Below the pieces are notes generated by a model. That model did no database searches, was not told where the DNA came from, and saw nothing but the letters and a program-made list of their open reading frames with translations. A stretch of 64,000 bases of DNA from an uncultured Phycisphaerales bacterium (GTDB lineage Bacteria > Planctomycetota > B15-G4 > CAYZWU01), in the NCBI GenBank assembly GCA_964482235.1, contig CAYZWU010000007.1, positions 3,053 to 67,052 on the forward strand, in the 5' to 3' direction. Positions 5,859 to 45,070 of the stretch are shown here, piece after piece. Each line of letters starts with the position of its first letter. Positions within the stretch are counted from its first letter, which is position 1. Made by a program: the position numbers and the translations under genes.

Positions 5859-5864
5859 GGATTT

Positions 5865-6476: not shown

Positions 6477-6478
6477 GA

Positions 6479-8846: not shown

Positions 8847-8854
8847 GGTCCCTC

Positions 8855-10054: not shown

Positions 10055-10071
10055 CTACGGCACGTTCCCGA

Positions 10072-11787: not shown

Positions 11788-11850
11788 TTACGCAATTACT
11801 ATCGAATCTCGGAAGGAGCGGACTTTAAGGAATATTCGCTTTCGGGCAGG

Positions 11851-11887
11851 AAAAAAGACCACCGGCCTCGCGCGGAAGCCGGTGGTC
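11851..11887 (-). terminator. rho-independent terminator downstream of the pseudopilin gene
   Basis: A perfect 10-bp stem (GACCACCGGC / GCCGGTGGTC) with an 11-nt loop. On the minus strand it is followed by a U6 tract (plus-strand AAAAAA at 11851-11856). Confidence 0.6.
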
Positions 11888-11935
11888 GCATGTCCGGGTC
11901 GAACCCGGGCCGTCTTCATCGATCAGGCGGGAGTC

Positions 11936-12472: not shown

Positions 12473-12617
12473 TCCAGATCTCCTTTTCCACTGTGTTTAC
12501 TTGGCTATCGCACAACCAGCTTTGTGTGATCTCCCCGCTTTATCGGAGAGTTCGAAAAATGACTTGAATCCCATTTCGGAAATCACTGATTTATTTGGTT
12601 CTTTTTCCTTCACATAT

Positions 12618-18483: not shown

Positions 18484-18594
18484 GAGAAGCTCTCCAGGGG
18501 AGGCGTGACGGAAAGGACAGGGACGGCACGGTCTTGGCGCGGCTGTGCTCTGTCCCTGTCCCGCGGGTGCGATCCAATCAGGCTCTCGGCTCTT

Positions 18595-19074
18595 CTACTT
18601 CTTCCTGGTTTTCTTTTTTATTGTCTTGGCGGCGGCCTTCTTTCTGGGGGCGCACTTGCTCTTCTTCTTCTTGATCGCCAGGTTCTTCAGGATGAGAAGG
18701 GCTTTTTTCGTGTTCGTGACCTGGAGGTAGAACCTGTCCTCGGCGCCGCCCGAACCGCCGGTGCTGCCATATCCGTATTCCACGTTGAGCTTGGCCTTGG
18801 CCAGGGCGCGGGAGATCTCGTCCAGCTTGCCGGGTTTGTTCTCTGCCGGAATCTCGAGGACGTTGGTCTCGATCACGAGGATCCCCCGGTCCCCCAGAGC
18901 GTGCAGAGCCTTCTGCGGCGTATCGACGATCATCCTCAGCACACCATGATCCACGGTGCCAAAGATGTTGAAGGCGAGGATGTTGACATGGATCTCCTTC
19001 ATGACCTCGCAGATCCTGGCCATCATTCCAGGCTGGTTTTCGAGAAAAACCGTCAACTGCTTCTGAATATTCAT
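18595..19074 (-). CDS. ACT-domain protein with a Lys-rich basic C-terminal tail
   Basis: About 130 aa of tandem ACT-like fold, followed by KKKKSKCAPRKKAAAKTIKKKTRKK. It lies in an operon with ctpA and tsaD. Confidence 0.55.
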   Translation of the reverse strand: MNIQKQLTVFLENQPGMMARICEVMKEIHVNILAFNIFGTVDHGVLRMIVDTPQKALHALGDRGILVIETNVLEIPAENKPGKLDEISRALAKAKLNVEYGYGSTGGSGGAEDRFYLQVTNTKKALLILKNLAIKKKKSKCAPRKKAAAKTIKKKTRKK

Positions 19075-19212
19075 TTCTTTCCTTCCAGTTACTGTTCAGG
19101 TTCCGAGCAGGCTGCACCTGAGAAATCTCGAATGGATGCCCGGGCACATTATGAGATAGATGCAGAGGAAAAAAAAGGGTTTATGATCTGCGGGCGGAAA
19201 GGGATCTCCCGG

Positions 19213-20568
19213 TCATCTGTTTCCCGGAAGGGGAGAGAAGATCTTCTTGCCCTCGAGGATCCGGACTGCGGCCAGGAACTGCCCGTCGCTGCAGAGCCGC
19301 CCTGCCTCCTCGCCCAGAACCTCGTCGAAATAAGCCTCCGGCACCTCCCGCGATCTGAGAAACCGCTTCAGGCTGTCGCTGGATCTACGGGACAGGTTCC
19401 AGGTGAAATCGGGTTCCAGGCCGCTCCCTCCCGTCAACTGCCGGTCGCGCCTTGTCTCGATGCAGCGGCCGAGAGGGGTGTAATACCTGGCCGTGGTCAG
19501 CTTGATGATCACCTCTCCGCCGAAATCCCTGCTGAATGCCGACTGCACCACGCCCTTGCCGAAAGTCCTCTCGCCGACGAGAACGGCGCGTTCGTGGTCC
19601 TGCAGGGTGCCGGCCAGGACCTCGGCCGCCGACGCGGTGTAGCGGCTGACGAGAAGGACGAGGGGGATGTCCGGAAAGAGATGGCGCTTGCTCGTGGCGG
19701 TGAAGGTGCGGTTCGAGTCGGCGCCGCGGCCGCGGGTGCGGAGGAGGATCCCATCCCCCTGGAACAGGTTGGCCGTGTGCAGGGCGCTGTTCAGAAGGCC
19801 GCCCTTGTTGAACCTGAGGTCGAGGATCAGGGAGCGGGCTCCCTCCTGCTTCAGGCGCCTCACGGCGCGGATCACCTCGTTCGCCGTCCCGTTGTTGAAG
19901 CTCCTGATCCTCATGTAGGCGATTCCCAGCTCGTCATTCACGAGGCAGGGATTGAATGCAGTGTTCTCGGCGACTCTCTTCCTCTCGATCTCGAGGCGGC
20001 GTCGGCTGCCGTTGTCGGATCCGTTGTCGCCGGGGGCGACGACGAGAATGCAGATCGAATCGGGCGGGCCGCGCAGGAGGTCCTCCACCTCGGTCCGGGT
20101 GCGGCCGGCCGCGGCGATGCCGTCGATCTCGATGATCCTGTCCCCGGGTTTCAGCCCCGCCTTTTCCGCCGGCGAGTAGGGGAAAGGGTAGAGCACCAGT
20201 GCCATGCTGCTGTGCGGGTCGAGCTCCAGGCCGATGCCGACGTATTCTCCCTTGGTGTCTTCGTGATAGCGCTGCTCCTCCTCGGGGCTGTAGAAGGTGC
20301 AGTAGGTGTCGAGGGAGGAGACCATGCCGTCCAGCGCGGAGTAGACGAGGCTCCGGTCGTCCACCTCGTCCACGTAGCAGTCGAGGATCAGGGAGCGGGC
20401 CTCGTTGATCCAGCGAAGCTCTTCCGGCGTCAGGGTGCGCTGGCCCTTTTCCCGGCGCGGCTCGTCGCTGCCCTCGGCCGTTCCCGTGAGGGCCGAGGGG
20501 CCGAGAAATAGCGCGGCAAAGGGGAAAAAGCCTGCGAGAAGTATGAGAAAATGGATTTTTCTTTTCAT
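19213..20568 (-). CDS. ctpA: carboxyl-terminal processing protease, S41 family, with PDZ domain
   Basis: Signal peptide, a PDZ domain (GDRIIEIDGI) and an S41 catalytic region (RFNKGGLL...GERTFGKG). 451 aa. Confidence 0.85.
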   Translation of the reverse strand: MKRKIHFLILLAGFFPFAALFLGPSALTGTAEGSDEPRREKGQRTLTPEELRWINEARSLILDCYVDEVDDRSLVYSALDGMVSSLDTYCTFYSPEEEQRYHEDTKGEYVGIGLELDPHSSMALVLYPFPYSPAEKAGLKPGDRIIEIDGIAAAGRTRTEVEDLLRGPPDSICILVVAPGDNGSDNGSRRRLEIERKRVAENTAFNPCLVNDELGIAYMRIRSFNNGTANEVIRAVRRLKQEGARSLILDLRFNKGGLLNSALHTANLFQGDGILLRTRGRGADSNRTFTATSKRHLFPDIPLVLLVSRYTASAAEVLAGTLQDHERAVLVGERTFGKGVVQSAFSRDFGGEVIIKLTTARYYTPLGRCIETRRDRQLTGGSGLEPDFTWNLSRRSSDSLKRFLRSREVPEAYFDEVLGEEAGRLCSDGQFLAAVRILEGKKIFSPLPGNR

Positions 20569-20815
20569 GGCGGCCGCCCGGCTCCTTTTACTGGCTGGAT
20601 GACGGTGCGTGTCGGCCCGGTTGTTGCTCTCGAGCAGCGTACCATTTGCCGCGTCTCGTTGGAAGGGGGCGATGAGAGCTGAGTTAATTCGTTCAAATGC
20701 CGATAGTTAGAAGATCGGCGAAAAGAGGCGAACAGTCAGGAATATCCAAGCCCTTCGAACCGTCAGAGATTTGTCGAATTGTAATTGAAGCGAACACTCT
20801 CTCTGGATCGTTGAG

Positions 20816-22840
20816 ATGAAGAAAAAAGTCAAACGTGTGCTGATCACCATGATTTTTGCGGTAGCTCTGCTCTACTTCGCATTCACGCAGCTGTTCTTCT
20901 CCCCTTTCGAGGACGATTTCGGACCGATCGAGTACATCGTCCCCAGGGAGGTCGATTTCTTCTGCGGGAAGGTCAACCTGTTCGACGATTTCCGCTCCTT
21001 TCCGGAGCCGGAGTTCTATCCCGACCTGAAGGCCTGCGCGGAATGGCGTTCCTTTCGGGGCACGGAGCTTTACTCGAGCTTCTGCGGGCAGAGGGATCCG
21101 GATATCGTCTTCCAGGAGATCCGCAACCAGATCAAGGACCTGCCGATCGATTTCATCAACGATATCGTGGGGCGGGAGGTGGCCGTTGCGGGCAGCTTCA
21201 GCGACGACGGGGCGATGGAGCGGTTTCTGCTCTTCTTCAGGGGATCGCTGAAGACCAAGTTCTTCTTCGAGCTGCTCACCTGGGACTTCGTGCGCGGGAT
21301 GGCGGAGGATCCCAACTTCGCGGAGAGCACGGTCTTCCATGACGAGAGAAAGTTCTACATGCTGACCCTGGTCGACGGGCAGTCCTTCTACATGAAGCGG
21401 TGCGCCGACCTGATCGTCGTGGGGAACGACGAGAAGATGATGGAGGAGATGTCCGAGCTGGTCGAGATGGGGTCGGAGTCGATCGACCTGAGCCTCGGCG
21501 GGGCGCAGGCCTACATCGAGAAGGTTCTCGTCCATGCGCCGGAGGAGGGGGAGGAGCTCGATAGCGAGCGGGACCTCCTGAACTTCCACGTCAATCTCGA
21601 GAGCCTGAGGGAGCGCGTTTCCCTGGACGACGAGATGAAGGCCAACGACACCGATTTCTCGATCATGACCATGGTGGACGTGTTTCAGCCCGAGTTCTTC
21701 CGGGATCTGACCGGGATCCTGGATCTCGGCGAGACGGTGGGCCTGCAGGCGCGGGCGGAGCTCGACAGGGATGCGGTCCTGGCATCGAAGACGGGCTTCT
21801 TCGACAGGGAGAACTTCGGCGTCAAGAAGAGCATGCGCCGGCTGGCAGGGATGCTGCCTGCCAACGTCTTTCTTGCCGGATGCGCCAGGCTGCGCCCTCT
21901 CGATTTCCTCACCATCCTCGAAGAGAACATGGATCCCGATTACCGGAAGCTTCTGAACGATCTGATCCGCGAGTCGAGCGGCCACGAGAAGTGGAAGGTG
22001 ACGGCGACGTGGGAGCTGATCGAGTTTCTCGACGCCACCTTCGGCGAGATGGTCTACTTCGCTCTCAGGCCGCGGCAGGAGGACAAGACGATCAGCGATT
22101 TCGTGCAGCCGCTGCCGATCTTCGCCCTGATATTCGAGGTCGAGGACCATGAGAAGCTCGCGATCCTCGAGGATGTGGTCAAGAGGCTGCGGAACAACAG
22201 CCGCAGCGAGTTCGACATGTACAAGTTCAAGAACGACTACTACGGCTGCATGATCAAGACGATCACCCCGCCCGAGGTGGATGATGTGGAGCATTTCGCC
22301 TTCACCACCATGGGGAGCAACTACTTCGTTCTCACCACGGCCGACGATTTCATCATGGAGATCGTCAAGACCTGGGCCACGTCGAAGCACAGCCTGGCCG
22401 ACACCCGCGGCTTCCGGAATGCCGAGGAATACCTGGGCAAGCACGGCAACCTGGGCCTCTACATGGAGATGGACGGCATGCGGCAGACGCTGGACAACTA
22501 CGCCACCTACTGGGGGCAGGTCCAGACGAGCTGGACGGAGGAGGAGGCCAGGGCCCAGCGGAAGAAGGTGCGCAGCGTGGTGATGCGGCGCGAGGGATTT
22601 CGCGGCGGGAGGAACGGGGATCTCTCCGAGGCGGACGAGAAGCGGCTGGTCGAGCTGGTGGACGAGGAGATGCTCAAGATCCGCGACAGGAGGATCCAGA
22701 CCGAGGGCCCGAAGTATGCGGCCGAGTTCCGCGAGAAGTGCGCCTGGATCGACCTCTTCAAAAGCGTCATGCTCAGCATGACGGTGAAGAAGAGGAGCAT
22801 GGACATCGACATCGGGCTGGAGACGCTGCTTTCGAGGTGA
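20816..22840 (+). CDS. large membrane-anchored protein of unknown function
   Basis: 674 aa with an N-terminal TM anchor. Its amino-acid composition looks protein-like (rich in K/E/D/F/Y). The overlapping antisense 730-aa ORF is Arg/Leu/Pro-rich and I judge it spurious. Confidence 0.55.
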   Translation: MKKKVKRVLITMIFAVALLYFAFTQLFFSPFEDDFGPIEYIVPREVDFFCGKVNLFDDFRSFPEPEFYPDLKACAEWRSFRGTELYSSFCGQRDPDIVFQEIRNQIKDLPIDFINDIVGREVAVAGSFSDDGAMERFLLFFRGSLKTKFFFELLTWDFVRGMAEDPNFAESTVFHDERKFYMLTLVDGQSFYMKRCADLIVVGNDEKMMEEMSELVEMGSESIDLSLGGAQAYIEKVLVHAPEEGEELDSERDLLNFHVNLESLRERVSLDDEMKANDTDFSIMTMVDVFQPEFFRDLTGILDLGETVGLQARAELDRDAVLASKTGFFDRENFGVKKSMRRLAGMLPANVFLAGCARLRPLDFLTILEENMDPDYRKLLNDLIRESSGHEKWKVTATWELIEFLDATFGEMVYFALRPRQEDKTISDFVQPLPIFALIFEVEDHEKLAILEDVVKRLRNNSRSEFDMYKFKNDYYGCMIKTITPPEVDDVEHFAFTTMGSNYFVLTTADDFIMEIVKTWATSKHSLADTRGFRNAEEYLGKHGNLGLYMEMDGMRQTLDNYATYWGQVQTSWTEEEARAQRKKVRSVVMRREGFRGGRNGDLSEADEKRLVELVDEEMLKIRDRRIQTEGPKYAAEFREKCAWIDLFKSVMLSMTVKKRSMDIDIGLETLLSR

Positions 22841-22941
22841 AAAGGCCTGCGCCGCAGCCCCCGCAAGACCGGTGCGGCGCAGCACTTGCCCGGGAAGTCG
22901 GATTCACGGAAGAAATGACTGGACTGCCCGGTAGAAGGTGG

Positions 22942-27031: not shown

Positions 27032-28579
27032 TCACTCGATTGTCACGAGCACGTGATTCGTGAGGACCGAGCCGGGATCTCCCTCAAGGCCGATCAGGGC
27101 CTGGAAAACGTGCACGTCTCCCGGCCGGCACCAGGACGGGATAACAACCGGCTCGATGACGATGTTCTCGCCGGGTATCAGCCTGGGGCCGTACCGGACG
27201 ATCGGCCAGGTCGGAAAAAAGTCGCCGTACATGGTCTGTTGGGGAGGATCCTGGACTCCGCCTCCGCGAGCCAGCATTGCGGGCTCCCCGGCAGCACCGA
27301 CGATGCGAACCTCGGCCGAACCGCCCGCCCGGATGTCCCCGCAGATGCAGAGCCGCGGCTCCTCGTGGAACCAGCAGAGAAAGTCGTCCCAGAACCCGTC
27401 CGCGCTGAAGGGAAGCCAGTCGTTGATGTAATCCTCGCGGATGACGCCGTTCGTCTTGGGGAAATAGATGGCGATCCCGTTGTCGTTGGACGTCGGTCCA
27501 TGGGTGGCGATCACGGCGTTTCGACGGCTGTTCACCTTGACGGCCGCATCGTGGATGTCTCCTGACGGGATCTGCTGGATCAGGAGCTCCGCCAGGTGGA
27601 AGAGATCCACGCTGTTCATCCCGCCGTTGTAGAGGCGTACGTTGTCGCGCACCGTCGTGATGTCGGCATGATTCGTGTGCATGGCGAGGGCCAGGCCGCT
27701 CACGTCATCGACGAGCGGCGGGGTCTGCGACAGGTCCATGGCCGACAGGGTGAAAGTGGGATTGACGGCCGCGTAGTCCTTCACGATGGTCGAGCCGAGC
27801 GTTGCCGCGTCCATCTTGGGATTGGCCGTGAGGTCGCCCAGGATCCGGTCGTAGGGCCACATGTTCGATTCGATCATCGCCGAGCCGACCATGACATCGG
27901 AGAAATCCTGCACCAGAAAGGCCACCTCCAGCATGGCCATGTTGCACTCGTCGAAACCGATCAGGTCGATCGCGAAGCCTGCCGAAAAGGCGTTGGCCAC
28001 GGCCTCCTGCAGTTCAGGGGTGTAGAGCTTGTCGTCAGACGTCCAGTCCTGGCCGGCGGCCACCCAGGCGTTGCCGTGGTCCCAGAGGATCAGCGCATAC
28101 CGGTTGGCCGGATAGTTCGTGCAGCCCCAGCGGATGAAGTCTTCCAGGCTGCCGTCATCGGGGGCGGCCATGGCGCCCACGGCCATGTCGCTTTCGCCGA
28201 GGAGCTGAACCTCGTTGCCGGGATCCGGCGTCATACCCTGGGTGATGTGGAAGCGCCGCGTGTCCTTCCAGTCGCCGTGATCCTTCGAATGCCCGCCGAT
28301 GCGGTCGAGCTGCGCCACGATGTTGACCTCGCTGGTGGAGCCGGCCTGGGCGAGCAGGATGAAGCTCGTGAGAGCGCTTCCCTCGAGGTTGTTGTCGCCG
28401 TTCATGAAGAGCATGAAGGTCCATTCGGCCTGGGGAGCCGGCAGGCGCTGGCTCCTGCAATCCGCCTGCTCGTCCCGGCTGGATCCCGGTCGAGCGAGGC
28501 CGTCGGAGCCCGCCTCTTCGCCCGCATCTGCGGCAAGGGCGAGTCCGAGAAGGAAGAGAGAAGCAAGCAGGATTCGCAT
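27032..28579 (-). CDS. clostripain-like cysteine peptidase (family C11, clan CD) with a conserved C-terminal domain shared with two beta-helix proteins
   Basis: Signal peptide MRILLASLFLLGLALA. C11 signature FMLFMNGDNNLE, and catalytic-region motifs WDHGNAW and GFDECNM. The C-terminal ~105 aa align to the tails of 37215..38723 and 43793..45070. Confidence 0.75.
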   Translation of the reverse strand: MRILLASLFLLGLALAADAGEEAGSDGLARPGSSRDEQADCRSQRLPAPQAEWTFMLFMNGDNNLEGSALTSFILLAQAGSTSEVNIVAQLDRIGGHSKDHGDWKDTRRFHITQGMTPDPGNEVQLLGESDMAVGAMAAPDDGSLEDFIRWGCTNYPANRYALILWDHGNAWVAAGQDWTSDDKLYTPELQEAVANAFSAGFAIDLIGFDECNMAMLEVAFLVQDFSDVMVGSAMIESNMWPYDRILGDLTANPKMDAATLGSTIVKDYAAVNPTFTLSAMDLSQTPPLVDDVSGLALAMHTNHADITTVRDNVRLYNGGMNSVDLFHLAELLIQQIPSGDIHDAAVKVNSRRNAVIATHGPTSNDNGIAIYFPKTNGVIREDYINDWLPFSADGFWDDFLCWFHEEPRLCICGDIRAGGSAEVRIVGAAGEPAMLARGGGVQDPPQQTMYGDFFPTWPIVRYGPRLIPGENIVIEPVVIPSWCRPGDVHVFQALIGLEGDPGSVLTNHVLVTIE

Positions 28580-28717
28580 GATCTTCTCCTTGAATGGGTG
28601 AAAGCAGATCTGCTGCATTGTTCCGATTCACGAATTCGAGATTGTATCACAATAAAAGCATATCTGAAGTGAATGAATTCCCGGCAAGGCTGCTGCGGCG
28701 GAGCAGGGAAGGAACGC

Positions 28718-30766
28718 CTACCTGCCGCCGGGCAGCGAGCACCTCGCTGTATCATCCTCGAGGCCGATCTTCTCGAGCGGGATGGGCTCGAAGCCGATCT
28801 TCCAGGCCGGCGAATCGCCCCTGAGCCGGAAGTCCAGAACAGCCTCGTCGAAAAAAAGCGGATCCTGATCAACGAGGTTGTCCTCGAACCGGACGAGAGG
28901 CCTGGCCGCCTTTTCGATGTCGAGCCACCTGCCGCGGACGCTGATGTTCCGCTCGACCACGTTTCCCATGGGTGCGCCGGGCCGGTCGTTCAGGAGGTTC
29001 AAGAGACGGGGATACCTTTTTTTCCAGAGAGGCGTCTCGAAGGGACTGGCCAGGAGCCTCTCCTTCATCACGCCGTCGATGTGATACTTCATCCATCCGA
29101 GTCCGCGTGCGTCGACGTGGACCGAGGGCAGACATTCGACGAAGATGTTGTTGACGACCCTGTTGTCGCGCCCGCCGCCGATGAACGCGGCGCGACCGGC
29201 CCGGTAGAAGAGGTTGCCCGATATCTCGATACCGCTCGCCGCATCGTCGAGGTAGACGGCCATGGCGCCGTGCAGGCCGGGCCCGGAGATGTGGTGAAAG
29301 TAGTTGTGTCGGATGACCGTCCCGCGCATCGTCCAGTCGCGGCCCATGTAGAAGGCGCCCACGTCACCCGTCTCGAAGCAGACATGGTGGATCTCGTTGA
29401 GCTCGATGATGTGCTCGTTCCCGCTGAGCTGGATCGCGTTGTGCGGGCCGTCGTGGATCAGGTTGTGGGCGATCCGGTTGCCCACGCCGCTGATCGCCAC
29501 GGCAGGCCGGTATGTCCGGTAGATCCGGCCGAAGTGGTGGATGTGGTTGTTCTCGGCAAAGTTCCCGGCCGGCGTCAAGGTCTCCCGGTCTCCTCCGCTC
29601 AGGCGGATGCCGCCTTCCGCTGTCCGGTAGATGTCGCAGCCGATCACGCCGTTCTCCCTGCCGCCGGCGATGTCGACGGCGTAGCTGCCCGTGTTGCGGA
29701 TCACGCATCCGGCGATGCGGTTCGCCCGGCCTCCGTGGACGGCAACGGCGGTGGAGCGGGTCGCCTCCAGGATGAGCCCGCGTATCGTGACGAATGACGT
29801 CTTCCTCATCGCGACCAGCATGGGAAGAACCGACAGGACGGCGCGTCCCTTCCCGCGGCCGGCGGGCGGCCTGAAGTAGAGGATCCTCTTGTCCCTGTCG
29901 CAGTACCACTCTCCCGGAGAATCGAGCTCCGAGAGAAGGTTCAGGGCATAGTATCGCTGTCCTTTCCTGTACCCGTAGTTGTGATAGGGAGTCTCGAGGG
30001 CCAGGATGCGCTTTTCCGCGTCGATCGACTTCACCTGCTGATAGGCATCGGACCAGTCCCAGAACCAGTAGCCGTGCAGCCAGATCTCCTTCTCGCCGAT
30101 CCACCGCTCCGCCCTTGCGCCGTCGAAGAAGAACCTGCCGATCTTGCTGCCCGCGATTCCATGGACCTTGTGGCCGTCCTTTTCCACCACATCGATGATG
30201 CGCACGAAGCCGCTTTCCGGCCACCGGGCGAGCGTCATCGCCTCGTCGTCGAAGAAGAGCTCCAGGCGCTTGTTGCGGGCCGTCGCTTCGCCAAGGTCCG
30301 TGATCCCGAGGCGGCCGAGGTCGGCCCGGAGCATTCCCTCGCGGCCGGGACCGGTGGCCGGCTCGAAGTTCGTCACCTCCCGTCCGCCCGTCAGGCGGAC
30401 CTCCTCGCCCGGACAGGCGGAGTAGACGATGGGCGACTCCAAGGTCCCCGAGTCGGCGAGAGAGAGCTCGAATACCCGGGACCGCTCGTAGGTGCCGCCC
30501 CGAAGCATCACAGCCACGCCTCCCATCGGCAGGCCGCCGTCTTGTTTCAGGCCGCGAATTTCATCGCGTGCCCGTTCCAGCGTGGCAAAGGGGCCGTCGT
30601 AGTTCCCGGGTGCGGGGGTTCTGCCGGACCAGCTGTCATTGCCGGCCGGCGAGACGTAGAGCTCGAGGACCTGGCTTTCCGCCTCCGGGCAGAGCCCGGG
30701 AAGAAAGGCCATGAGAAGAAGGATCGAGCGCAGCGGGAAACGTCGTATGTCTGCATGGGGGATCAT
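28718..30766 (-). CDS. secreted right-handed parallel beta-helix protein (pectin-lyase fold); lacks the shared C-terminal domain
   Basis: Signal peptide from MIPHADIRRFPLRSILLLMAF. Multiple beta-helix repeats (NRIAGCVIRNTG, NHIHHFG, NLIHDG...). 683 aa. Confidence 0.65.
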   Translation of the reverse strand: MIPHADIRRFPLRSILLLMAFLPGLCPEAESQVLELYVSPAGNDSWSGRTPAPGNYDGPFATLERARDEIRGLKQDGGLPMGGVAVMLRGGTYERSRVFELSLADSGTLESPIVYSACPGEEVRLTGGREVTNFEPATGPGREGMLRADLGRLGITDLGEATARNKRLELFFDDEAMTLARWPESGFVRIIDVVEKDGHKVHGIAGSKIGRFFFDGARAERWIGEKEIWLHGYWFWDWSDAYQQVKSIDAEKRILALETPYHNYGYRKGQRYYALNLLSELDSPGEWYCDRDKRILYFRPPAGRGKGRAVLSVLPMLVAMRKTSFVTIRGLILEATRSTAVAVHGGRANRIAGCVIRNTGSYAVDIAGGRENGVIGCDIYRTAEGGIRLSGGDRETLTPAGNFAENNHIHHFGRIYRTYRPAVAISGVGNRIAHNLIHDGPHNAIQLSGNEHIIELNEIHHVCFETGDVGAFYMGRDWTMRGTVIRHNYFHHISGPGLHGAMAVYLDDAASGIEISGNLFYRAGRAAFIGGGRDNRVVNNIFVECLPSVHVDARGLGWMKYHIDGVMKERLLASPFETPLWKKRYPRLLNLLNDRPGAPMGNVVERNISVRGRWLDIEKAARPLVRFEDNLVDQDPLFFDEAVLDFRLRGDSPAWKIGFEPIPLEKIGLEDDTARCSLPGGR

Positions 30767-30780
30767 CGGTTCAGTGTATC

Positions 30781-33144
30781 CTATTCCACCTTCCACTCCA
30801 GGACGCCGCCGGAGTAACCGGTCTTCAGCTTCACCTCGATACGGACGGCCGCGGTGCTCACGGTCGCGAATTCCACGCGGTTGAATCGATCGAGCTCCAC
30901 GCCGAATGCCGAGGAGGTCTTGACCGGCTTCCACTGGCCATTCTCCTCGTAGAGGAGCCGCCATGATTCGGGAACGCGGCACTGCCCCCGGCCGGTGTCA
31001 TCGAACCAGTAGACCTCCATTGCGGAGACCTTTCGGGGCGTGTCGAAGTCGTACTGCACCCATTCCTCGGTTCCGCGATGATCCCACCAGGTGAAGCGCG
31101 GCAGCCCGTGGTCGCCGGAGCTCTTCGGCTCGATCTCGTCGTTCATCGCGTCGGCGGCGTCGCTCGCGTGGCAGTGCGAGGCGGAGGCCGTCATCAGCTC
31201 GGCCGGCGACAACGGTGTGGACGGCCCCAGCGCTCTGGGGTCGAGGGATCGGTAGAGAATGCCGTTCCATGCCGGGTCGTCGGCGTCCGGCGATCTCGAT
31301 TTCCCGTCCTGCCTCACCCAGACGGCCATGGGGCCCGGCTCCCTGTGGTCCCAGGCATGGTACGGCACGGCCTGACAGGTGCGCCCTTTGACGTCGCGGC
31401 ACCGGATCACGGTGATCCCGCCGAGAAGATCGGGTTTGTGCAGCACCGAAAATCCAGGTTCCCTGGCCAGGCGGATACGGCGGATGGAGCTGCCGTTGTC
31501 GGCGCCTTCGAAGCAGTAGACGAGCGGTCCCCGCTGCAGGGCGACCCGCCCGGCGTTGGCCTCCACCGACCGGTGGGCTTCGATCCTCTCCACCGGCATG
31601 GGCATGTTGAGCTCGATGCGGTCACCGCTCTGCCAGGTGCGATGAAGCCGGGCATAACCCGATCGTATTTCCGGGAGGCGGATCGGCAGGTCGTTCAGAA
31701 GGATCCGTGCTCCCCGGCACCAACCCGGGATCCGCAGGTTCATGTCGAAGGCTGCCGGCTTCTCCAGCTCGAGCTTCAGCTGGACATGGCCGTCCCAGGG
31801 ATAACGCGTTCTCTGAACGATGGTGACGGCCGCCTCGTCAAGTTGAATCGTGGCCTTGCCGGCCACGTAGAGGTTCACATGGATCCCTTCCGGTCCCAGC
31901 GCATAGACGTATCCCGGCAGCGACGGCACGAAGCGGACGACGTTGCTCGGGCAGCAGGCGCAGGGGTAGAAGGGCTGCCTGTGATGGCCGCCTCCCGAGG
32001 CCAGCGGATTGACGTAGAAGAAGCTCGTTCCGTCGCGCCCGATACCGGAGAGGATCCCGTTGTAGATCACACGCTCGAGCACGTCGGCGTAGCGGGCGTC
32101 GCCGTGCATCAGGTTGAGGCGGTGGGCGAAGAGGGCAAGGCCGATGGCGGCGCACGTCTCCGCGTAGGCCGACTGGTTCGGAAGCTCGTAGGCGGCGCCG
32201 AAGGCCTCGCCGCTGTGCCGCGCGCCGATGCCGCCGGTGATGTACATCTTTTTTTCGACGACGTCCTTCCAGATCCTCTCCATCGCATCGATCCACGGTC
32301 TGTGCCCCGTGTAGGCCGCCACGTCGGCAACGCCGGCGTAGAGGTACATGGCTCGGACGGCATGGCCGACGATCTCGCTCTGGTCGGCGATCAGCGCGTG
32401 ATCCTGGCAGTAGGCGCCGAAGAGAGGGCGTTTCTCCTTGTTGCCTCGGCTTTCCAGGAAGAACTGCGAGAGCTTCATGTACCTGCTGTCGCCCGTGACC
32501 TGGTAGAGCTTCACCAGGGCGAGCTCGATCTCCTCGTGGCCGGGCACGCCCTGGCGCTTTCCGGGCCCGAAGAGAGCGTCGATGCGGTCGGCGAACCGGA
32601 TCGCCACGTCGAGAAGCGTTCGTTTTCCCGTGGCGCGGAAGTGTGCCACCGCCCCCTCGATCAGGTGTCCGGCACAGTAGAGCTCGTGCTTGATCCGCAG
32701 GTCGGACCACCTCTTGTCCGGTTCGGCCAGGGTGTAGAAGGTATTGAGGTACCCGTTCTCCTCCTGGGCGGCGGCGATCCACGCTACCACCTCGTCAACG
32801 GCGGCTTCAAGCACCGGATCGGGCAAATCGGCAAGGGCATAGGACGCCCCCTCGAGCACCTTGTAGACGTCGGAATCGTTGAAGTAGATCCCTTCGAATC
32901 GGCCATCCCGGTGGGCGGCCGATCTCACGAAGTTGCCGAAACGACCGGTCTGCCGGCACCACTTGAAGTTGTGGGGCAACGACTTCTCGCGGTTGATCTC
33001 GATGCGCGGCGCCCAGAATCCGTCCCGGATCTTCACCTCGGTGAACGGCACGCCCGTGAGCTTGCGATGCTCCGGTCCATCCTCACGGCCTGCGGCCGTT
33101 GCAGAACAAAGAAGCGCGAGCGCGATTATGATGATCTGTTTCAT
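30781..33144 (-). CDS. glycoside hydrolase family 127 (beta-L-arabinofuranosidase, DUF1680) with C-terminal discoidin/F5-8-type-C domain
   Basis: Signal peptide MKQIIIIALALLCSA. A GH127 core (about 600 aa, with ELYCAGHLIEG and CCPSN Cys-rich motifs) is followed by a discoidin-like domain (WVQYDFDTPRKVSAMEVYW). Confidence 0.85.
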   Translation of the reverse strand: MKQIIIIALALLCSATAAGREDGPEHRKLTGVPFTEVKIRDGFWAPRIEINREKSLPHNFKWCRQTGRFGNFVRSAAHRDGRFEGIYFNDSDVYKVLEGASYALADLPDPVLEAAVDEVVAWIAAAQEENGYLNTFYTLAEPDKRWSDLRIKHELYCAGHLIEGAVAHFRATGKRTLLDVAIRFADRIDALFGPGKRQGVPGHEEIELALVKLYQVTGDSRYMKLSQFFLESRGNKEKRPLFGAYCQDHALIADQSEIVGHAVRAMYLYAGVADVAAYTGHRPWIDAMERIWKDVVEKKMYITGGIGARHSGEAFGAAYELPNQSAYAETCAAIGLALFAHRLNLMHGDARYADVLERVIYNGILSGIGRDGTSFFYVNPLASGGGHHRQPFYPCACCPSNVVRFVPSLPGYVYALGPEGIHVNLYVAGKATIQLDEAAVTIVQRTRYPWDGHVQLKLELEKPAAFDMNLRIPGWCRGARILLNDLPIRLPEIRSGYARLHRTWQSGDRIELNMPMPVERIEAHRSVEANAGRVALQRGPLVYCFEGADNGSSIRRIRLAREPGFSVLHKPDLLGGITVIRCRDVKGRTCQAVPYHAWDHREPGPMAVWVRQDGKSRSPDADDPAWNGILYRSLDPRALGPSTPLSPAELMTASASHCHASDAADAMNDEIEPKSSGDHGLPRFTWWDHRGTEEWVQYDFDTPRKVSAMEVYWFDDTGRGQCRVPESWRLLYEENGQWKPVKTSSAFGVELDRFNRVEFATVSTAAVRIEVKLKTGYSGGVLEWKVE

Positions 33145-33264
33145 TATTTGTCCTGTTGTCAAAATATGGAAACATATATAAAATATGCATTGACCTTGGT
33201 GGATAGTATCCTAGTCTATCCTCGGTCAAGCGACAAGCCGTATGCCACCTGAGGGAAAACGGGA

Positions 33265-37214: not shown

Positions 37215-38723
37215 ATGAAAACGGTCATTATCTCCCTTCTTCTGTTCATCTGCCTTTCAAGCGAGGCTGCCGACGGTTTTGAAATCATCTACGTCCCTGA
37301 TCATTATGCCTCCATCCAGGAAGCGATCGATGCGGCCTACCCCGGCGATGTCGTCGTGGCGAGGCCGGACACCTATCACGAGAACATCGATTTTCACGGC
37401 AAGGCGATACGCGTTCGCAGCGAGATCGGCCCCCGCTTCACCGTGATCGAGGGGGACCGGACGGGACCGGTGGTCGCGTTTCGGAGCGGCGAGAAGCGGA
37501 CCTCAGTCATCGAGGGATTCACCATCAGGAACGGGACCAACGGAATCGAGTGCTTTCACGCGGCACCGGCCATCGAGGGAAACGTCATCACCGGCAACAC
37601 GACAACGCAGAGCGGCGGGGGGATCCTCTGCACCGGCGACTACTGGAACCTGTACAACATCCTGATCCGCGGCAACGAGATCACCGGCAATGCGGCAGAC
37701 CGGGGCGGCGGCATCTACATGGCCGACACCTTTGCCGGCGAGATCACGGAAAACAGCGTGAGCCATAATCAGGGAGGCGGTATCTATCTGCTGGAGTCCG
37801 GTTTCAGGATCGAGCGGAACTTGGTCAAGCACAACAGGGCGGATCCTACCTGGACCTACGTGGGCGGCGGCATCTCCTGCCAGATGGCTTCGCCCCTGAT
37901 CACGGGAAACGTGGTCGCCTGCAACATTGCCACCGGCATTTTCGGGCGGGGCGGCGGGATCCTCTGCTACTTCGAGGCCGACTGTCTGATCACGGGCAAC
38001 ACGATCGCGGACAACAGCGCCGAGTTCTACGGCGGAGGGATCTGCAACCTGGGATCGAGCGTCAAGGTCGCCGGCACGATCCTCTGGGGGAACAGCGCGC
38101 CCACGGGACCGGCAATCCACGCGGAGAGTAGTTTTTCTCCGCCCTTCATCGCCATGACCTGCTGCGATGTAGAGGGAGGGGTGAACGGCGTCTCGCTGGA
38201 GCCGGGCTCCCAGTTCCAGTGGCTGCCGGGCAACATCGCCCAGCCGCCCCTTTTCGTCGAACCAGGCCGGGAGGATTATCATCTGACCTGGCGCTCGCCG
38301 TGCCGGGACCGGAGCAGCGATGCCCTGCCCGGATTGGCCGATTGCGACATCGAGGGCGATCCGCGTCTTTCGGGCGAGATGCCCGACATCGGAGCCGATG
38401 AGTTCCACCTCCACCTCTACCACTGGGGCGACGTCGTGCCCGGCGGTTTCCTGGACATCCGCCTGGCGGGTAGGCCGGCTACGCGGCCCGTCCTGATCGC
38501 CCTCGGCTCAGGCCTGCTGGACGTGCCGTTCCCGACAGCTTGGGGCGTTTTCTTTCTCCGTCCTCCTCTCGAGATCTACAACGCCGGCGGCATCGGCTCC
38601 TACACCGGGATCCGAAGCATCACCGTCCCTGTCCCGGCGACGTGGAGTCCGGGCGACGTTCATCCGCTCCAGGCCCTGGCCGGCGGCGTCCTGACCAATG
38701 CGCATCTCCTCGAGGTGCAGTGA
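37215..38723 (+). CDS. secreted parallel beta-helix repeat protein with a conserved ~105-aa C-terminal domain
   Basis: Signal peptide MKTVIISLLLFICLSSEA. Repeated G/N-rich beta-helix rungs (NVITGNT, NEITGNAADRGGGIY, NSVSHNQGGGIY...). The C-terminal domain GDVVPGG...WSPGDVHPLQAL...LTN is shared with 27032..28579 and 43793..45070. Confidence 0.7.
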   Translation: MKTVIISLLLFICLSSEAADGFEIIYVPDHYASIQEAIDAAYPGDVVVARPDTYHENIDFHGKAIRVRSEIGPRFTVIEGDRTGPVVAFRSGEKRTSVIEGFTIRNGTNGIECFHAAPAIEGNVITGNTTTQSGGGILCTGDYWNLYNILIRGNEITGNAADRGGGIYMADTFAGEITENSVSHNQGGGIYLLESGFRIERNLVKHNRADPTWTYVGGGISCQMASPLITGNVVACNIATGIFGRGGGILCYFEADCLITGNTIADNSAEFYGGGICNLGSSVKVAGTILWGNSAPTGPAIHAESSFSPPFIAMTCCDVEGGVNGVSLEPGSQFQWLPGNIAQPPLFVEPGREDYHLTWRSPCRDRSSDALPGLADCDIEGDPRLSGEMPDIGADEFHLHLYHWGDVVPGGFLDIRLAGRPATRPVLIALGSGLLDVPFPTAWGVFFLRPPLEIYNAGGIGSYTGIRSITVPVPATWSPGDVHPLQALAGGVLTNAHLLEVQ

Positions 38724-38818: not shown

Positions 38819-40711
38819 ATGCACCGAATCGCACCGCTGCTGCTCCTCTTCCTGGTCTCTCCGCCCCTGGCGGCGGACGATTGCTGGATCTTCCTGAAGG
38901 ACGGCCGCGTGGGCCGGGGCGACATCTCGGGCGAGCCGGTCGTCGTCGCTTTCCCTGACGGTGAGAGCGTCGAGGTCGGGAGCGATCAAATCGATCGCAC
39001 GCGCACGGACAGGCAGATCGCCGAGACCGTCGACGCGATCTTGAGAGATCTGGGCCGGGGCAGGAAGGTGAATGAGCACAAGGAGCGCCTGAAGGAGCTC
39101 GAGGCCGCGGCCGTGCCCCGCCTGATCGATCACCTCCAGGGCGAGAAACCGGTCAACAGGCAGAACGCGCTCTTCGCATTCTGCTATGCCTGGTCGCCGC
39201 GCGCCGTGGGCCCCGTCGCCTGCTGTCTCGACGACCTGGAGCCCTCGATCCGGCGGGCCGCCCTCCTGGCTCTGTCCAGGCACGTGCCGCCCGAGCGCCT
39301 CTACCTCCTCATGAAGAGGATCGTGGAGCACGACGATCCGACGATCGCGATCTTCGGCTTCGAGACAGCGGAGAGGATCCGCCCCGACATCACCCGGATC
39401 GCGAGATTCCTGGCCGAGCCCGAGTGCTGGGACAAGCTGATCCGCTATCTGCCCCGCTACCAGTCGCCCGACCTGATTCCCCTTGTCCGCACCATGCTCG
39501 ACAAGGGGAAGGGCGAGGTGCAGCGGACGGCCGTGGTTTCGCTCGCCATCCTGTGCGACAACGCCGGTGCGACGCGAAGGAAGATGCACGACCTCCTCGA
39601 TGACGCGTCGCCGGAGATCCGCGAGGCGGTCGGCGAGTATTTTGCCTATCATGGAACGGAGAGCGATCTCGAGTCGCTCGAGAAAAGGGCGGCCAGGGAG
39701 AAGGACATCCATGCGAAGACTTCCCTCGTCGCTGCCGCGGAGACGATACGCCGCCGCAGCGAATGGCTTGCCGGCGCGGCCGCCGCTCCCGAAGCCGGGA
39801 CGCTCCATCTTCCGGAATCGGGTGATCCCGCCGAGCTCTACGCGGCAGCCCTCGAGCTGCTGCAAGCCTCCCCGGCGCCCGAAGCGTGGTACCGCTGCTT
39901 CGAGGTCTTCAGGGACGCGGAGCCCCTCGAGCCTCGATTCGTCTACAGGAGCGAGATGCCGGCGCCGTCGTTCCTGGGCAGGATCGAGAAGCGGCTCGCA
40001 CTGCAGGCCGCCCTCTTTGCCAATCCCGCGCCGCAGGCGGAGAGGTCGCCGCAGGAGGGGGAGGGGCCGCCCGTTGCGGAACGCCTTCAGCCGCCGATCC
40101 GCGACTATCTCGACAGATCGCGCAAGAGCTACGGCAAGCTGGTGGACGGCAGCGCCAAGGTCTTCGGCGGCACGGTGCACGTGGGGGATGACACGGGGTG
40201 GCACAGGGACCTCCTCACCGTGGCAGCGATCGGCAACGGGATCGTGCGGCGCGCCGAAACCACCTTCTCCTGGGGCGGCATCGTGATCATCGAGCATCGC
40301 GGGCCGGACGGGAGTTCGTTCTGCTCCCTCTACGCGCACCTGTCGCCCCTTCTTCTCGTTCGATCCGGAGAGAACGTGAAGCGCGGCCGGAAGATCGGTT
40401 CGATAGGGAGGACCCACACCTTCGAGAACGGCGGCTTCAACGCGCACATTCATTTCGGTATCCACCTGGGGCCCTACGTGGATGCGCGCAAGAAGGGGGA
40501 TTCCTTCGAGACCGTGCTGGCCGGCAAGCCGGCGCGGCTCACCGTGGAGGAGGTGCGGGAAGAGAGCTTCCTCTGCCGCTGCGATAACGGCACCCTTGTT
40601 CTGCTGCAGAAGAACCCCGGCTGGGTGGGCGGCTACCTCTCGCCGGCCCGCTTCGAGGCGGGAGATCATGGCTGGGTCGACCCCCAGGCCTTCATCAGGA
40701 AAAGGAGATAA
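38819..40711 (+). CDS. M23 (LytM) family metallopeptidase with an N-terminal HEAT-repeat region
   Basis: Signal peptide present. HEAT-like repeats occupy the N-terminal region. The C-terminal M23 domain carries HVGDDTGWHRD...IIEHRG...AHLS...IGSIGRTH...NAHIHFGIH. Confidence 0.75.
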   Translation: MHRIAPLLLLFLVSPPLAADDCWIFLKDGRVGRGDISGEPVVVAFPDGESVEVGSDQIDRTRTDRQIAETVDAILRDLGRGRKVNEHKERLKELEAAAVPRLIDHLQGEKPVNRQNALFAFCYAWSPRAVGPVACCLDDLEPSIRRAALLALSRHVPPERLYLLMKRIVEHDDPTIAIFGFETAERIRPDITRIARFLAEPECWDKLIRYLPRYQSPDLIPLVRTMLDKGKGEVQRTAVVSLAILCDNAGATRRKMHDLLDDASPEIREAVGEYFAYHGTESDLESLEKRAAREKDIHAKTSLVAAAETIRRRSEWLAGAAAAPEAGTLHLPESGDPAELYAAALELLQASPAPEAWYRCFEVFRDAEPLEPRFVYRSEMPAPSFLGRIEKRLALQAALFANPAPQAERSPQEGEGPPVAERLQPPIRDYLDRSRKSYGKLVDGSAKVFGGTVHVGDDTGWHRDLLTVAAIGNGIVRRAETTFSWGGIVIIEHRGPDGSSFCSLYAHLSPLLLVRSGENVKRGRKIGSIGRTHTFENGGFNAHIHFGIHLGPYVDARKKGDSFETVLAGKPARLTVEEVREESFLCRCDNGTLVLLQKNPGWVGGYLSPARFEAGDHGWVDPQAFIRKRR

Positions 40712-40713
40712 CC

Positions 40714-42405
40714 GTGACGGCAGCTTTCGCCCCTCTTTGCTCGGCACTGATCCGGCTGCTTTTCGCGGCGGCTCTGGTCTGGCCGGCAGGTCCGGCCCGG
40801 TCCGCGGCGGGCCAGCCGCGGAATGACCTGTTCGGCACGGAATCGGCTCTCGAGAACGGCGGCTTCGAGAAGGGATCGGACCGCGCGATCCCTCGCTGGC
40901 AGAAGGTCTGGCCGCCCTTCGCCGACCGCGAGCCGCTGTTCCGGCATGTGGCGAAGGGGGCTCATGGGGGCCGATCCTGCGCCTCGATCGAGACGTTCCA
41001 CCAGGGGGGATACACCTCCTGGACACAGAGGATCGAGAGACCGCCTGAAGGGGCCACCGTCGTGCATCTCGAGGGATGGATCCGCTTCGACGATTCAGGA
41101 GAAGGCGGCCGGGCCCGCGCGTCCCTCCTGATGCTCTTTTCCGGTTCCGGGATGCGGGACGACGGCGCCGTCCTCTCCACGCCCTGGATCGACTCGTCGA
41201 CCAGGGAATGGACGAGGGTGGAGCATGACATGGTGGTGCCCGAGGGCGCGGAGAAATGGATGGTGCGGTGCGGCGTGACGGGAAAGGCCCGCGTCTTCTT
41301 CGACGACATCAGGGTCACCTGGTCCACGAAGAAGGCGAAGTGGAGCACCGCGGTCCTCGTCGAGACGTCAGGCCGGTATCAGGTGCGGGCCGCCGCATCG
41401 GCCAGGAAGGCGTGGGCCATGGTCTCGATCCCCTTCCCCTACATGGGACAGACTCCCCTGGCGATCGGCGTGAGATCCGAGCCGGAGAAGGCGATCGACC
41501 GGCTCGAGATCGTGAAGGACCGGGAGAACAGGTTCCTCAAGGTCTGGTTCGAGGGGATGAAGCCCGGCGACGGGATCAGGTTCGATGTGCGCACCCTCGT
41601 CCTCGTCAGGGACCGGCCCCTCCCGGACGGGAAGGGCATCGCCCTGGCCGGTCGGGGCAAGGTGCCGAAGGAGGTGAAGCCGTTCCTCGAGCCTTCCGAC
41701 GGCCTGGAAACGGAGGACGAGACGATCCGGAAGATCGCCGGCCGTTTCGACAGGACCGACCTCGCCTCCATGATGGCCGGCCTGACCGGTTATCTCAGGG
41801 AGAACATGGAGTACGAGCCCGGAGGCGACCAGGGCGCCAGGGCGTCGATCGTTTCGAAGAGGGCGGTCTGCACCGGCTTCGCCAACGCGGCGGCTGCGCT
41901 GCTCATCGCGGCCGGCGTCCCGACCCGCATCCTGGCCTGCACCCAGACGGAGGGCGAGCTCCAGGAGCATTACATCGTGGAAGCCTGGACCCGTGAGCTC
42001 GGCTGGTCGCGCTGCGAGTCGACGATGGCGGAGTTTCCCTGGGCCGACACGCGCAACGTGATACTCCGGGTGATCTACCCCGACGCCTCACGCACGTCGG
42101 GCAACGTACCGATCTTCATGGAGAGCGGCGGCGGCGTCATGATGGGGGCGGACATGGGTGGATCGAACGGCTGCTGGCAGTCTGCAGCAACACTGCGGAG
42201 CCTGATCGTTCGTGCCGAGGATCTGGCGCCCCTCGAAGAGCTCCTGCGGAAGGCTTTCGAGAAGGCAGCGAAAAAGGCGGTGCGCGGGAGCTCGATCAGC
42301 TTCATCCCCAAGGCGGCGAAGATGAGGGGGATCGACGACGGCATCAAGGATCTGATGAAGGAGATGGAAGGCCGTCTCTCGAGAGAGAGTCGACAGGCAA
42401 AGTGA
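40714..42405 (+). CDS. transglutaminase-like cysteine protease/crosslinking-domain protein with an N-terminal CBM-like beta-sandwich
   Basis: Signal peptide present. The N-terminal region is CBM4/9-like (GGFEKG...W...). The core is transglutaminase-like ([22 protein letters not shown]...H...D). Confidence 0.65.
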
Positions 42406-42418
42406 TAGGAGGCGCTCC

Positions 42419-43792: not shown

Positions 43793-45070
43793 TCAGTATG
43801 TCAGGATCATCAGGTTCGTGAGGCGCGACCCCGGAGCCTGGGGCCCCACGAGTGCCTGAAAGGGATGTCTGTCGCCGGCAAGCCACGATGCCGGCACCGT
43901 TCCGGGATGGATCAGCACACCGTTCGCGGGAATGACGCCGAGATCATAGATCCCGAGCAGAGGTGACAGGAGATGGAAGTCGCCGTATGGCGTGACGAGC
44001 GGCGGATCCTGAACACCTGAACCGTGAGCGAGCCTCACGGGAGCCATGCCCGGCTGTCCGACCACCTTGATCTCGATCGATCCGCCCGGCGCCACGTCGC
44101 CGGAGTGGTAGAGGTGGTAGAAGAACTCGTCGGCTCCGATGTCGATCCTGTCGCCGGCGATCCGCGGGTCGCCTTCGTAGTCGAGTTCAGGGACATCGGG
44201 CGGCGTGTCGATGCCTGTGTCCCGGCAGGGCGAGTCGAAGGTCAGGTGAAAATCGAAATGCGGCGGATTGAAAACGTCCACGAAGAGCGGATCGGCGTCG
44301 ATGTTGCCCGGGCCCTGCCATCCTCCCTTCACGTTGCAGTGGCTCACCACGACCTGGTTGATGAGTGAGATGAAGAGGTCCGGGTCCGACGGAGCGTAGT
44401 TGTCCCGCACGATCGTGTTGAAGATCTTGATGTTCGGCAGCTGCAAGAAGATGACATAGATCCCACCGCCTGAAACGGAAGCCGTATTGAGCGTCACCGT
44501 GTTGTTGACGATTCTCGTCGAGGGCTCCGGGTCGACGCATCCGATGCCGCCGCCGTAGTCCGCCGTGTTCGCGGTGACGATGTTGTTGATGATCTTGGAG
44601 GAGCTGTAGTAGCCGCAGAAGATCCCACCGCCGCAATCGGCCTTGTTGGCCATCACGACGTTGTTGCGGATTGTGGGGGTGCTCCACCAGGCCGAGTAGA
44701 TTCCGCCGCCGCAGAGACCGCCGTACTTCCTGTCGTATGTTCCCGTCCCGTTCCTGATGCAGAATCCCTCGAACACCGAACCCTGGGCCTTCTCGCTGTC
44801 AAAGGTGACCACGCTCCCGTTGCCGTTGCCGTCGATCACGGTGTAGGCGGGGCCGAGCTCGCTTTTCAGGATCACGGGCCTGTCATAGCTGTCATCGATG
44901 TTTTCCACGTAGGTCCCCGGCCTGACGATGATCGTGTCTCCGGCAGCGGCGGCGTCGATGGCGCCCTGGATCGTCGTATGGTCGTCGGGGACGTAGATCG
45001 TCCTCCCCTGGGAGATTGCGGCGAGAAGAAGGCAGGCGGACAAGGTGCAACACAGTTTTTTGCTGAACAT
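43793..45070 (-). CDS. secreted parallel beta-helix repeat protein with the conserved C-terminal domain; paralogue of 37215..38723
   Basis: The N-terminal region aligns with 37215..38723 (TIYVPDDHTTIQGAIDAAAAGDTIIVRPGTYVENID). Beta-helix rungs are present. The C-terminus GDVAPGG...WLAGDRHPFQAL...LTNLMILTY matches the shared domain. Confidence 0.7.
   Translation of the reverse strand: MFSKKLCCTLSACLLLAAISQGRTIYVPDDHTTIQGAIDAAAAGDTIIVRPGTYVENIDDSYDRPVILKSELGPAYTVIDGNGNGSVVTFDSEKAQGSVFEGFCIRNGTGTYDRKYGGLCGGGIYSAWWSTPTIRNNVVMANKADCGGGIFCGYYSSSKIINNIVTANTADYGGGIGCVDPEPSTRIVNNTVTLNTASVSGGGIYVIFLQLPNIKIFNTIVRDNYAPSDPDLFISLINQVVVSHCNVKGGWQGPGNIDADPLFVDVFNPPHFDFHLTFDSPCRDTGIDTPPDVPELDYEGDPRIAGDRIDIGADEFFYHLYHSGDVAPGGSIEIKVVGQPGMAPVRLAHGSGVQDPPLVTPYGDFHLLSPLLGIYDLGVIPANGVLIHPGTVPASWLAGDRHPFQALVGPQAPGSRLTNLMILTY

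Follow-up and report, generated by a model that had tools for sequence, protein, structure and literature searches.

We analyzed a 64,000-nt window of contig CAYZWU010000007.1, which belongs to a metagenome-assembled genome (MAG) of an uncultured marine Phycisphaerales bacterium (Planctomycetota). The gene at 27032..28579 (minus strand) of this window encodes a peptidase of family C11 (clostripain, clan CD) that ends in a C-terminal domain, hereafter the tail, which it shares with two beta-helix proteins of the window. The tail is an uncatalogued, lineage-specific C-terminal domain family, and the C11 peptidases fused to it form a conserved group of orthologues, with at least 11 sequence clusters and 46-97% identity. 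The original prediction was that this peptidase removes the tail from its other carriers, in the manner of PorU in type IX secretion (by the T9SS). We tentatively favor a different reading, to which we give a probability of about 45%. The protein would be a secreted, clostripain-type peptidase that is co-targeted with the beta-helix proteins through a shared localization or docking tail, following the cargo logic of the gingipains.

Membership of the peptidase in family C11 is solid. Its catalytic domain (residues 58-401; 27377..28408, minus strand) matches Peptidase_C11 (PF03415) with 111.4 bits (cut-off 25.8; E 9.5e-32), and the match covers 355 of the 359 model positions. The protein contains the motifs FMLFMNGDNNLE (residues 55-66), WDHGNAW (166-172), and GFDECNM (208-214). 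The catalytic residues His168 (codon 28076-28078) and Cys212 (codon 27944-27946) are intact and, in an alignment with clostripain (9CIP) and the C11 zymogen 6MZO, fall on the HG and FDAC motifs of these two proteins. The earlier assignment to clan CD and family C11, which had been based on these motifs, is therefore confirmed. The S1 residue Asp210 is two residues ahead of Cys212, as in the Arg/Lys-specific clostripain types. This hints at Arg/Lys specificity, and the protein is probably an active clostripain-type endopeptidase. Between His and Cys, DD(K/R)L is kept at what we take to be the position where PmC11 autoprocesses.

The predicted structure agrees with the family assignment. The full-length AlphaFold model, made from an alignment of 42 homologues (predicted local distance difference test [pLDDT] 91, predicted template modeling score 0.85), has a caspase-like alpha/beta/alpha fold. 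A Foldseek search with this model returns clostripain 9CIP as the best match (E 4.9e-21, target template modeling score 0.66). Nine further chains, all from C11 or related clostripain-like proteases and including PmC11 and the C11 proteases of Bacteroides, match at E≤3.4e-7. The window peptidase scores 37 bits in the clostripain equivalog model, for which the cut-off is 550.

The product begins with a putative signal peptide, continues with about 25 disordered residues and the Peptidase_C11 domain, and ends in the C-terminal domain of roughly 105 residues. Translated from the ATG at 28579 to the stop codon at 27032-27034, it comprises 515 residues, a gene model that draws on the list of open reading frames (ORFs), the PF03415 match, and the architecture of the orthologues. 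Public gene calls use an alternative in-frame ATG at 28618, which adds 13 residues, and the exact 528-residue product is found in public assemblies. The starts of the orthologues (MR...) correspond to 28579, not 28618. The putative Sec-type signal peptide MRILLASLFLLGLALAADA (28523..28579, minus strand) was recognized by eye and contains a helix in the model (residues 2-18). It is followed by a disordered stretch (residues 20-43, pLDDT <50), and the first sheet starts at residue 51. Judged from its sequence, the peptidase is soluble, with a signal peptide and without a membrane anchor, and would be secreted through the Sec pathway. One public cluster representative, P0006, equals the window protein minus 15 residues (GCTNYPANRYALILW, window region 28076-28130). 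This deletion stops one residue ahead of the catalytic His168 and represents either strain microdiversity or an assembly error.

The tail is found at the C-termini of three proteins in the window. When the peptidase is compared by tblastn with the whole window, its residues 427-528 (528-residue numbering) recur at the end of an ORF at 43793..45070 on the minus strand (E 4e-17, 45% identity) and of another at 37215..38723 on the plus strand (E 9e-8, 36% identity), and there is no other match. A hidden Markov model (HMM) of the tail finds exactly three copies in the six-frame translation of the window, with E values of 1e-40 to 1e-53; that of the peptidase (residues 410-515; 27035..27352, minus strand) scores E 1e-47. 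The original prediction stated that the peptidase carries exactly the tail of the two beta-helix proteins. A homologous C-terminal domain is indeed present in both, but at 36-45% identity the copies are members of the same family rather than the same tail.

Both of the other carriers are beta-helix proteins, with signal peptides and matches to Beta_helix, NosD, DUF1565, and Chlam_PMP. Protein A (425 residues; 43793..45070) consists of the signal peptide, a Pmp-like GGGI beta-helix, a choice-of-anchor Q motif (about 44123-44263), and the tail (43796-44128; E 4e-53). Protein B (502 residues; 37215..38723) consists of the signal peptide, a Beta_helix/NosD region, a choice-of-anchor-Q-like motif, and the tail (38400-38720; E 7e-40). 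Model NF041518 matches protein A over residues 270-316, ending at the tail, with 26.9 bits against a cut-off of 25; the same motif in protein B scores 17.9 bits, below the cut-off.

The tail is predicted to form a nine-strand immunoglobulin (Ig)-like beta-sandwich. A model of the tail alone has a pLDDT of 91.7, and in the full-length model the strands span residues 409-513. There the tail appears as a compact sandwich, packed on the catalytic domain and joined to it by a connector of about 4 residues. The family has no Pfam or NCBIfam model. The tail of the peptidase gives no match to either collection at E≤10, and at this threshold none of the three window tails matches the models of the T9SS C-terminal domain (CTD; TIGR04183, PF18962, and type B). 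The last 47 residues of the tail of protein B give a weak match to TIGR03437, the “Solibacter uncharacterized C-terminal domain” (E 0.05), which may be a remote link to another lineage-specific C-terminal domain.

The tail family is large. When a tail profile was run exhaustively against 1.84 billion cluster representatives (clusters at 50% identity), 1,237 clusters reached E≤1e-3, and 1,008 of them reached E≤1e-10. This search replaced word-index searches that had given 5 and 23 short fragments and had missed the window's own proteins. Architecture and position were counted in the best 150 of the 1,237 clusters. Among these representatives, the tail ends no more than 5 residues from the C-terminus in 140, and of the 147 whose N-terminal region is usable, 145 have a beta-helix/choice-of-anchor-Q architecture. 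The tail thus fills the “anchor slot”: it is strictly C-terminal and stands behind the choice-of-anchor-Q module. C11 and DUF7948 are the only other architectures seen in the best representatives and in the metagenome loci described below. The named genomes that bear tails are uncultured Phycisphaerales MAGs and one “Planctomycetota bacterium”.

Tail genes are highly paralogous, as the number of tail ORFs in one metagenome and a tandem array among them indicate. A contig scan with one narrow tail pattern found four loci in three MAGs; in metagenomes, scanning for the C-terminal half of this domain gave 40 loci from two sample groups. The metagenome loci hold 51 tail ORFs, of which 47 encode beta-helix proteins, three C11 peptidases, and one a DUF7948 protein. 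Metagenome Ga0190284 has about 24 tail ORFs on 19 long contigs; four beta-helix paralogues with tails (about 590 residues each) stand in tandem on contig Ga0190284_1000010, at about 152.3-161.1 kb (L027/L032). Adjacent paralogue pairs are also present in L033, L047, L050, and L064. The single carrier seen that is neither a beta-helix protein nor a C11 peptidase (L026 2804-4108, identical to P0138) has DUF7948 (PF25778, E 1.4e-45) ahead of GANEF-HLY and the tail.

C11 peptidases with tails form a defined subfamily. Of 120 C11 homologues listed, the tail is confined to the ten that rank highest, P0006-P0015, for which the search tool gives 49-97% identity. An eleventh cluster, L046, came from the metagenome scan and is 85% identical to P0013 and 46% to P0006. 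The C11 tails are mostly closest to each other and make up their own, slightly atypical subgroup, most members of which score below the best-150 cut-off of the tail profile search. This closeness is consistent with an old, vertically inherited fusion.

The catalytic His and Cys are intact in all ten orthologues examined, while other parts of the catalytic domain have changed. The S1 Asp (FDEC) is replaced by Asn (FNEC) in the clade of P0012-14 and P0306 (L004, L020), which would imply a changed P1 preference. P0015 (L011 10001-11071) has 356 residues and lacks about 140 residues of the catalytic domain, with His, Cys, and tail kept. Because it occurs on 14 contigs, five of them of 50-200 kb, P0015 is not an assembly artifact; it may be a pseudo-enzyme.

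Outside this subfamily, the nearest C11 relatives bear C-terminal modules of other kinds: a T9SS type A CTD in P0070 (TIGR04183, 43.6 bits), dockerin, PPC, or TIG domains in others, and a transmembrane helix followed by a basic tail in P0016. This variety suggests that C11 modules are habitually cargo that takes on the local targeting domain.

These patterns can be assembled into a scenario for the reading that we favor, that of a co-targeted peptidase. A Phycisphaerales ancestor would have fused a C11 peptidase to the lineage-specific Ig-like domain. The same domain ends a large family of Pmp-like beta-helix surface proteins that diversifies rapidly and has tens of copies per organism, often in tandem. 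As a common localization module, the tail could serve export, surface retention, or docking, and would place the single peptidase in the compartment or structure of the beta-helix proteins. The peptidase would then be a passenger of the system that reads the tail, and an analogue of the gingipains rather than of PorU. Gingipains are clan-CD proteases that bear the CTD as cargo (PMC5562754). We infer that the tail has a role in localization and that it is retained, not cleaved.

Four points weigh against a co-targeting tail. Its host range is narrow, since beyond the beta-helix/choice-of-anchor-Q proteins that dominate the best carriers we find it on C11 and DUF7948 proteins only. A general tag would be expected on many enzyme classes, yet the secreted sulfatase, GH127 enzyme, and M28 peptidase of the window are without it. 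One conserved protease set against tens of tail paralogues is the one-enzyme, many-substrates pattern of a dedicated processing enzyme. Finally, no tail-reading machinery was identified.

The junction in front of the tail bears on any role in processing. In the beta-helix proteins, the tail begins 2 residues past the GADEF end of the choice-of-anchor-Q motif, and in the model of the peptidase it begins 4 residues past the last helix of the C11 domain. Across 146 beta-helix proteins, the frequency of K/R at the junction is at most 6%. The nearest conserved basic residues are the Arg of GDPR (91%), 12 residues before the tail, and a K/R in strand 2 of the tail (86%); both lie within folded modules. 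Such a tight, non-basic junction is unfavorable for Arg/Lys-directed cleavage of the tail. This is not decisive, however, because PorU cleaves independently of sequence.

A protease dedicated to maturation or shedding is possible but unlikely. The tail would dock the peptidase on the beta-helix proteins, through tail-tail contacts or a common receptor, and the enzyme would cut away from the tail junction, for example in adhesin release or remodeling, without any part in sorting. That the tail is found on beta-helix proteins and one protease argues for a functional tie over a general tag. Proteases specific for adhesins are known from other systems: LapG releases LapA in Pseudomonas, and gingipains process other T9SS cargo. 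Near the C-terminus, basic residues are conserved at two positions only, the GDPR Arg and the K/R of strand 2 of the tail; however, their position inside folded modules speaks against them as cleavage sites, and GDPR is part of the choice-of-anchor-Q signature and not specific to this family. There is no linkage between the genes. Within genomes, identities between peptidase and beta-helix tails, compared for concerted evolution, showed small and inconsistent differences.

A sortase of the PorU type is less probable still. PorU is a clan-CD peptidase of the T9SS that has a C-terminal domain like that of its substrates and cleaves it from them, a point on which the original prediction was correct (PMC4560394, PMC8545088). 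By analogy, the C11 enzyme would be delivered by its own tail and would cut the tail off the beta-helix cargo, possibly transpeptidating the cargo to a surface anchor. The window enzyme does resemble PorU in being a clan-CD peptidase that bears the C-terminal domain of its putative substrates (PMC4560394, PMC8545088). Moreover, an Ig-like beta-sandwich is also the fold of the T9SS CTD, whose cleavage does not depend on sequence (PMC4804311), so that a missing cleavage motif is not fatal to the idea. The strictly C-terminal tail behind a choice-of-anchor module, the conserved fusion with its intact His and Cys, and the separate subgroup of C11 tails are all in line with a sortase.

The distribution of the genes is also compatible with a sortase. 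C11 peptidases with tails were found in all three sample groups and in each of the two MAGs open to a check (the window MAG and CAZUHB01), at about one or two per 14-24 tail genes in each sample group. In CAZUHB01, P0012 and a beta-helix gene with a tail are on separate contigs. In Ga0190284, P0008 is on contig _1000090, beside two tail remnants, and C11 peptidases with tails are also among the tail ORFs of the Ga018042x/43x samples. We saw no counter-example, that is, tails in numbers without a tail-bearing C11 peptidase, in the sample groups and MAGs checked, to which two further tail-bearing MAGs do not belong. Since all carriers seen belong to one clade, the co-occurrence is also compatible with simple shared ancestry. 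Tetranucleotide comparison of the Ga0190284 contigs with the contig of the C11 peptidase gave equally good correlations for relatives from other samples. NCBI source annotation describes the cluster representative only and is unusable for inferring the absence of a tail-bearing C11 peptidase. An argument that these peptidases are too rare for a universal sortase (about 10 versus 1,237 clusters) was dropped, because the metagenome scan revealed tens of divergent tail paralogues per organism and about one tail-bearing C11 gene per 10-24 tail genes, and because most C11 tails fall under the best-150 cut-off.

Other observations speak against the predicted removal of the tail by this enzyme. It has no conserved neighbor gene, and thus no conserved linkage to cargo genes or to a candidate translocon. 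The junction of 2-4 residues is poor in K/R despite the clostripain-type S1 Asp. The peptidase has no membrane anchor, and related C11 peptidases bear sorting or anchor modules as plain cargo, such as the T9SS CTD of P0070. The Asp/Asn switch in one clade and the shortened catalytic domain of P0015 do not fit easily with a sorting enzyme that is essential and has one fixed specificity. The tail does have the extreme C-terminal position of a generic sorting tag and is present on many proteins per genome, but functionally diverse cargo, a hallmark of known sorting tags, is absent from the best 150 of the 1,237 clusters and from the metagenome loci. We also consider it improbable that these genes make up a new Phycisphaerales sorting system, in which an Ig-like tag of about 105 residues on tens of Pmp-like beta-helix proteins per cell would be served by a single tail-bearing C11 enzyme as PorU-like signal peptidase or sortase.

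It is similarly doubtful that the tail is a ligand-binding domain of the carbohydrate-binding-module kind and the peptidase a free nutrient-acquisition enzyme of glycan or glycoprotein degradation that shares only the tail ligand with the beta-helix proteins: the neighborhoods are rich in secreted glycoside hydrolases and sulfatases, some tail carriers are beta-helix proteins with Pectinesterase/Pel9A-like matches, and Foldseek links the tail weakly to the beta-glucan-binding N-terminal domains of GNBP3 and to CBM56 (E about 0.01), but carbohydrate-binding modules usually occur on many enzyme classes and in variable positions, whereas this tail is terminal and has nearly one architecture.

The genes around the tail-bearing C11 peptidases differ between lineages. 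The neighborhoods of five such lineages have nothing in common except secreted glycoside hydrolases, and those of tail genes in general have no common partner gene. GH127 is present in the window and in L011 (4.4 kb from the peptidase gene), while GH106 and GH99/71 flank the gene in L004 and L020. In the window, the gene directly upstream of the peptidase encodes a 754-residue beta-helix protein without the tail (28718-30982, minus strand), and upstream of that lies a GH127 beta-L-arabinofuranosidase (30781-33162, minus strand) that also has an F5/8 type C domain. Immediately upstream of where the peptidase gene starts, a consensus scan places a site that resembles a promoter (TTCAGA-16-TACAAT, extended TG; 28641..28668, minus strand), which weakly suggests that the gene has its own transcription start.

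Genes for a secretion apparatus are present in the window. The original prediction named a type II secretion system (T2SS)/type IV pilus-like apparatus as the possible export conduit. Such a cluster does exist at 5103-14139 (minus strand), but its link to the peptidase consists of proximity in the window, and it is absent within 10 kb on either side of the orthologues. It includes a GspE-like ATPase with MshEN (10072-11787), GspF (8855-10054), a pseudopilin (8160-8846), and a secretin with a Secretin_N match only (12889-14139), all on the minus strand. Several of its ORFs have no family match, including one of 519 residues at 6479-8038. The T9SS core genes PorK/L/M/N, Sov, and PorV were not found among the window ORFs scanned.

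Several further features were recorded. Between the two beta-helix genes with tails (38819-43789, plus strand) are genes for an M23 peptidase with HEAT repeats, a transglutaminase-like protein, and a GFO/IDH/MocA oxidoreductase. In L001 (13216-17395), the stretch from the C11 gene with its tail to a remnant of a beta-helix gene with a tail holds a TgpA-like transglutaminase, an ORF without annotation, and a MoxR ATPase. These arrangements are possibly a coincidence. Large ORFs of 619-730 residues with no Pfam match at E≤1e-4 are found at 18505-20511 (plus), 20693-22885 (minus), 20816-22840 (plus), and 56963-58822 (plus); the second and third overlap on opposite strands.

A different C-terminal domain often lies beside genes with the tail described here. 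This “tail 2” is strictly C-terminal, has about 120 residues, and follows the consensus ...GS.SGT.PGT.LPGG...PLN.D.FT...HFAF...DFASN.V..V.P. We located it at L026 4405-6672 (minus), L011 11118-13046 (plus), L034/L035 1620-2399 (plus), L041 7768-8100 (minus), L048 4156-5664 (plus), L050 4887-6164 (plus), and L007 4581-5384 (minus). Its carriers include what is apparently, by eye, an LVIVD-type repeat protein, an FG-GAP protein just downstream of P0015, and a GH18-like fragment. Tail 2 has no Pfam or NCBIfam model and is absent from the window, and hhalign gave no support for homology with the first tail. Its varied carriers look more like those of a general sorting tag than do the carriers of the first.

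The cell envelope of planctomycetes is unusual and not well understood, and little is known of how they display surface proteins. Here, the tail family marks a large set of beta-helix paralogues together with one conserved protease, which provides a testable candidate enzyme-substrate pair. If the peptidase did process the tail, the system would be convergent with the T9SS in a different phylum and with a different peptidase family, and would represent a second, independently evolved use of the PorU principle. If the tail is not processed, it would be a marker of a lineage-specific surface proteome, and the peptidase an ordinary secreted relative of clostripain.

The window peptidase shares its core with the known members of family C11, namely clostripain (9CIP), PmC11 (3UWS/4YEC), and the enzymes of B. 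thetaiotaomicron (6N9J, 6NAG) and P. distasonis (6MZO). They have in common the PF03415 domain, the His-Gly and Asp-x-Cys motifs with Asp two residues before Cys, and, according to the model, the caspase-like fold. Unlike them, the window peptidase has an additional Ig-like C-terminal domain of about 105 residues from an uncatalogued family, and its host belongs to the Phycisphaerales rather than to the Firmicutes or Bacteroidota. The beta-helix carriers resemble choice-of-anchor Q proteins and proteins with Chlamydia Pmp-like repeats, the module standing directly before the tail in proteins A and B and in 145 of the 147 best carriers. Known choice-of-anchor proteins end in PEP-CTERM, LPXTG, or a T9SS CTD; in contrast to these catalogued signals, the tail carriers end in an uncatalogued domain of 105 residues.

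The comparison with PorU (6ZA2) extends to a clan-CD peptidase that has the same class of C-terminal beta-sandwich as its putative substrates, and to one enzyme for many tail proteins. However, the window enzyme belongs to C11 and not to the gingipain-like family C25: C11 is its sole peptidase family match, and its structural neighbors are C11 enzymes. Its tail has no similarity to the T9SS CTD models, although the same tools detect a CTD on P0070, and its putative cargo is essentially one protein family, whereas that of the T9SS is diverse. The gingipains RgpB and Kgp differ from the window peptidase in that its tail is not found on other enzyme classes. Together with the C11 peptidases that bear a T9SS CTD, they are nevertheless the comparison that we favor, as clan-CD proteases that carry the C-terminal domain of their system as cargo.

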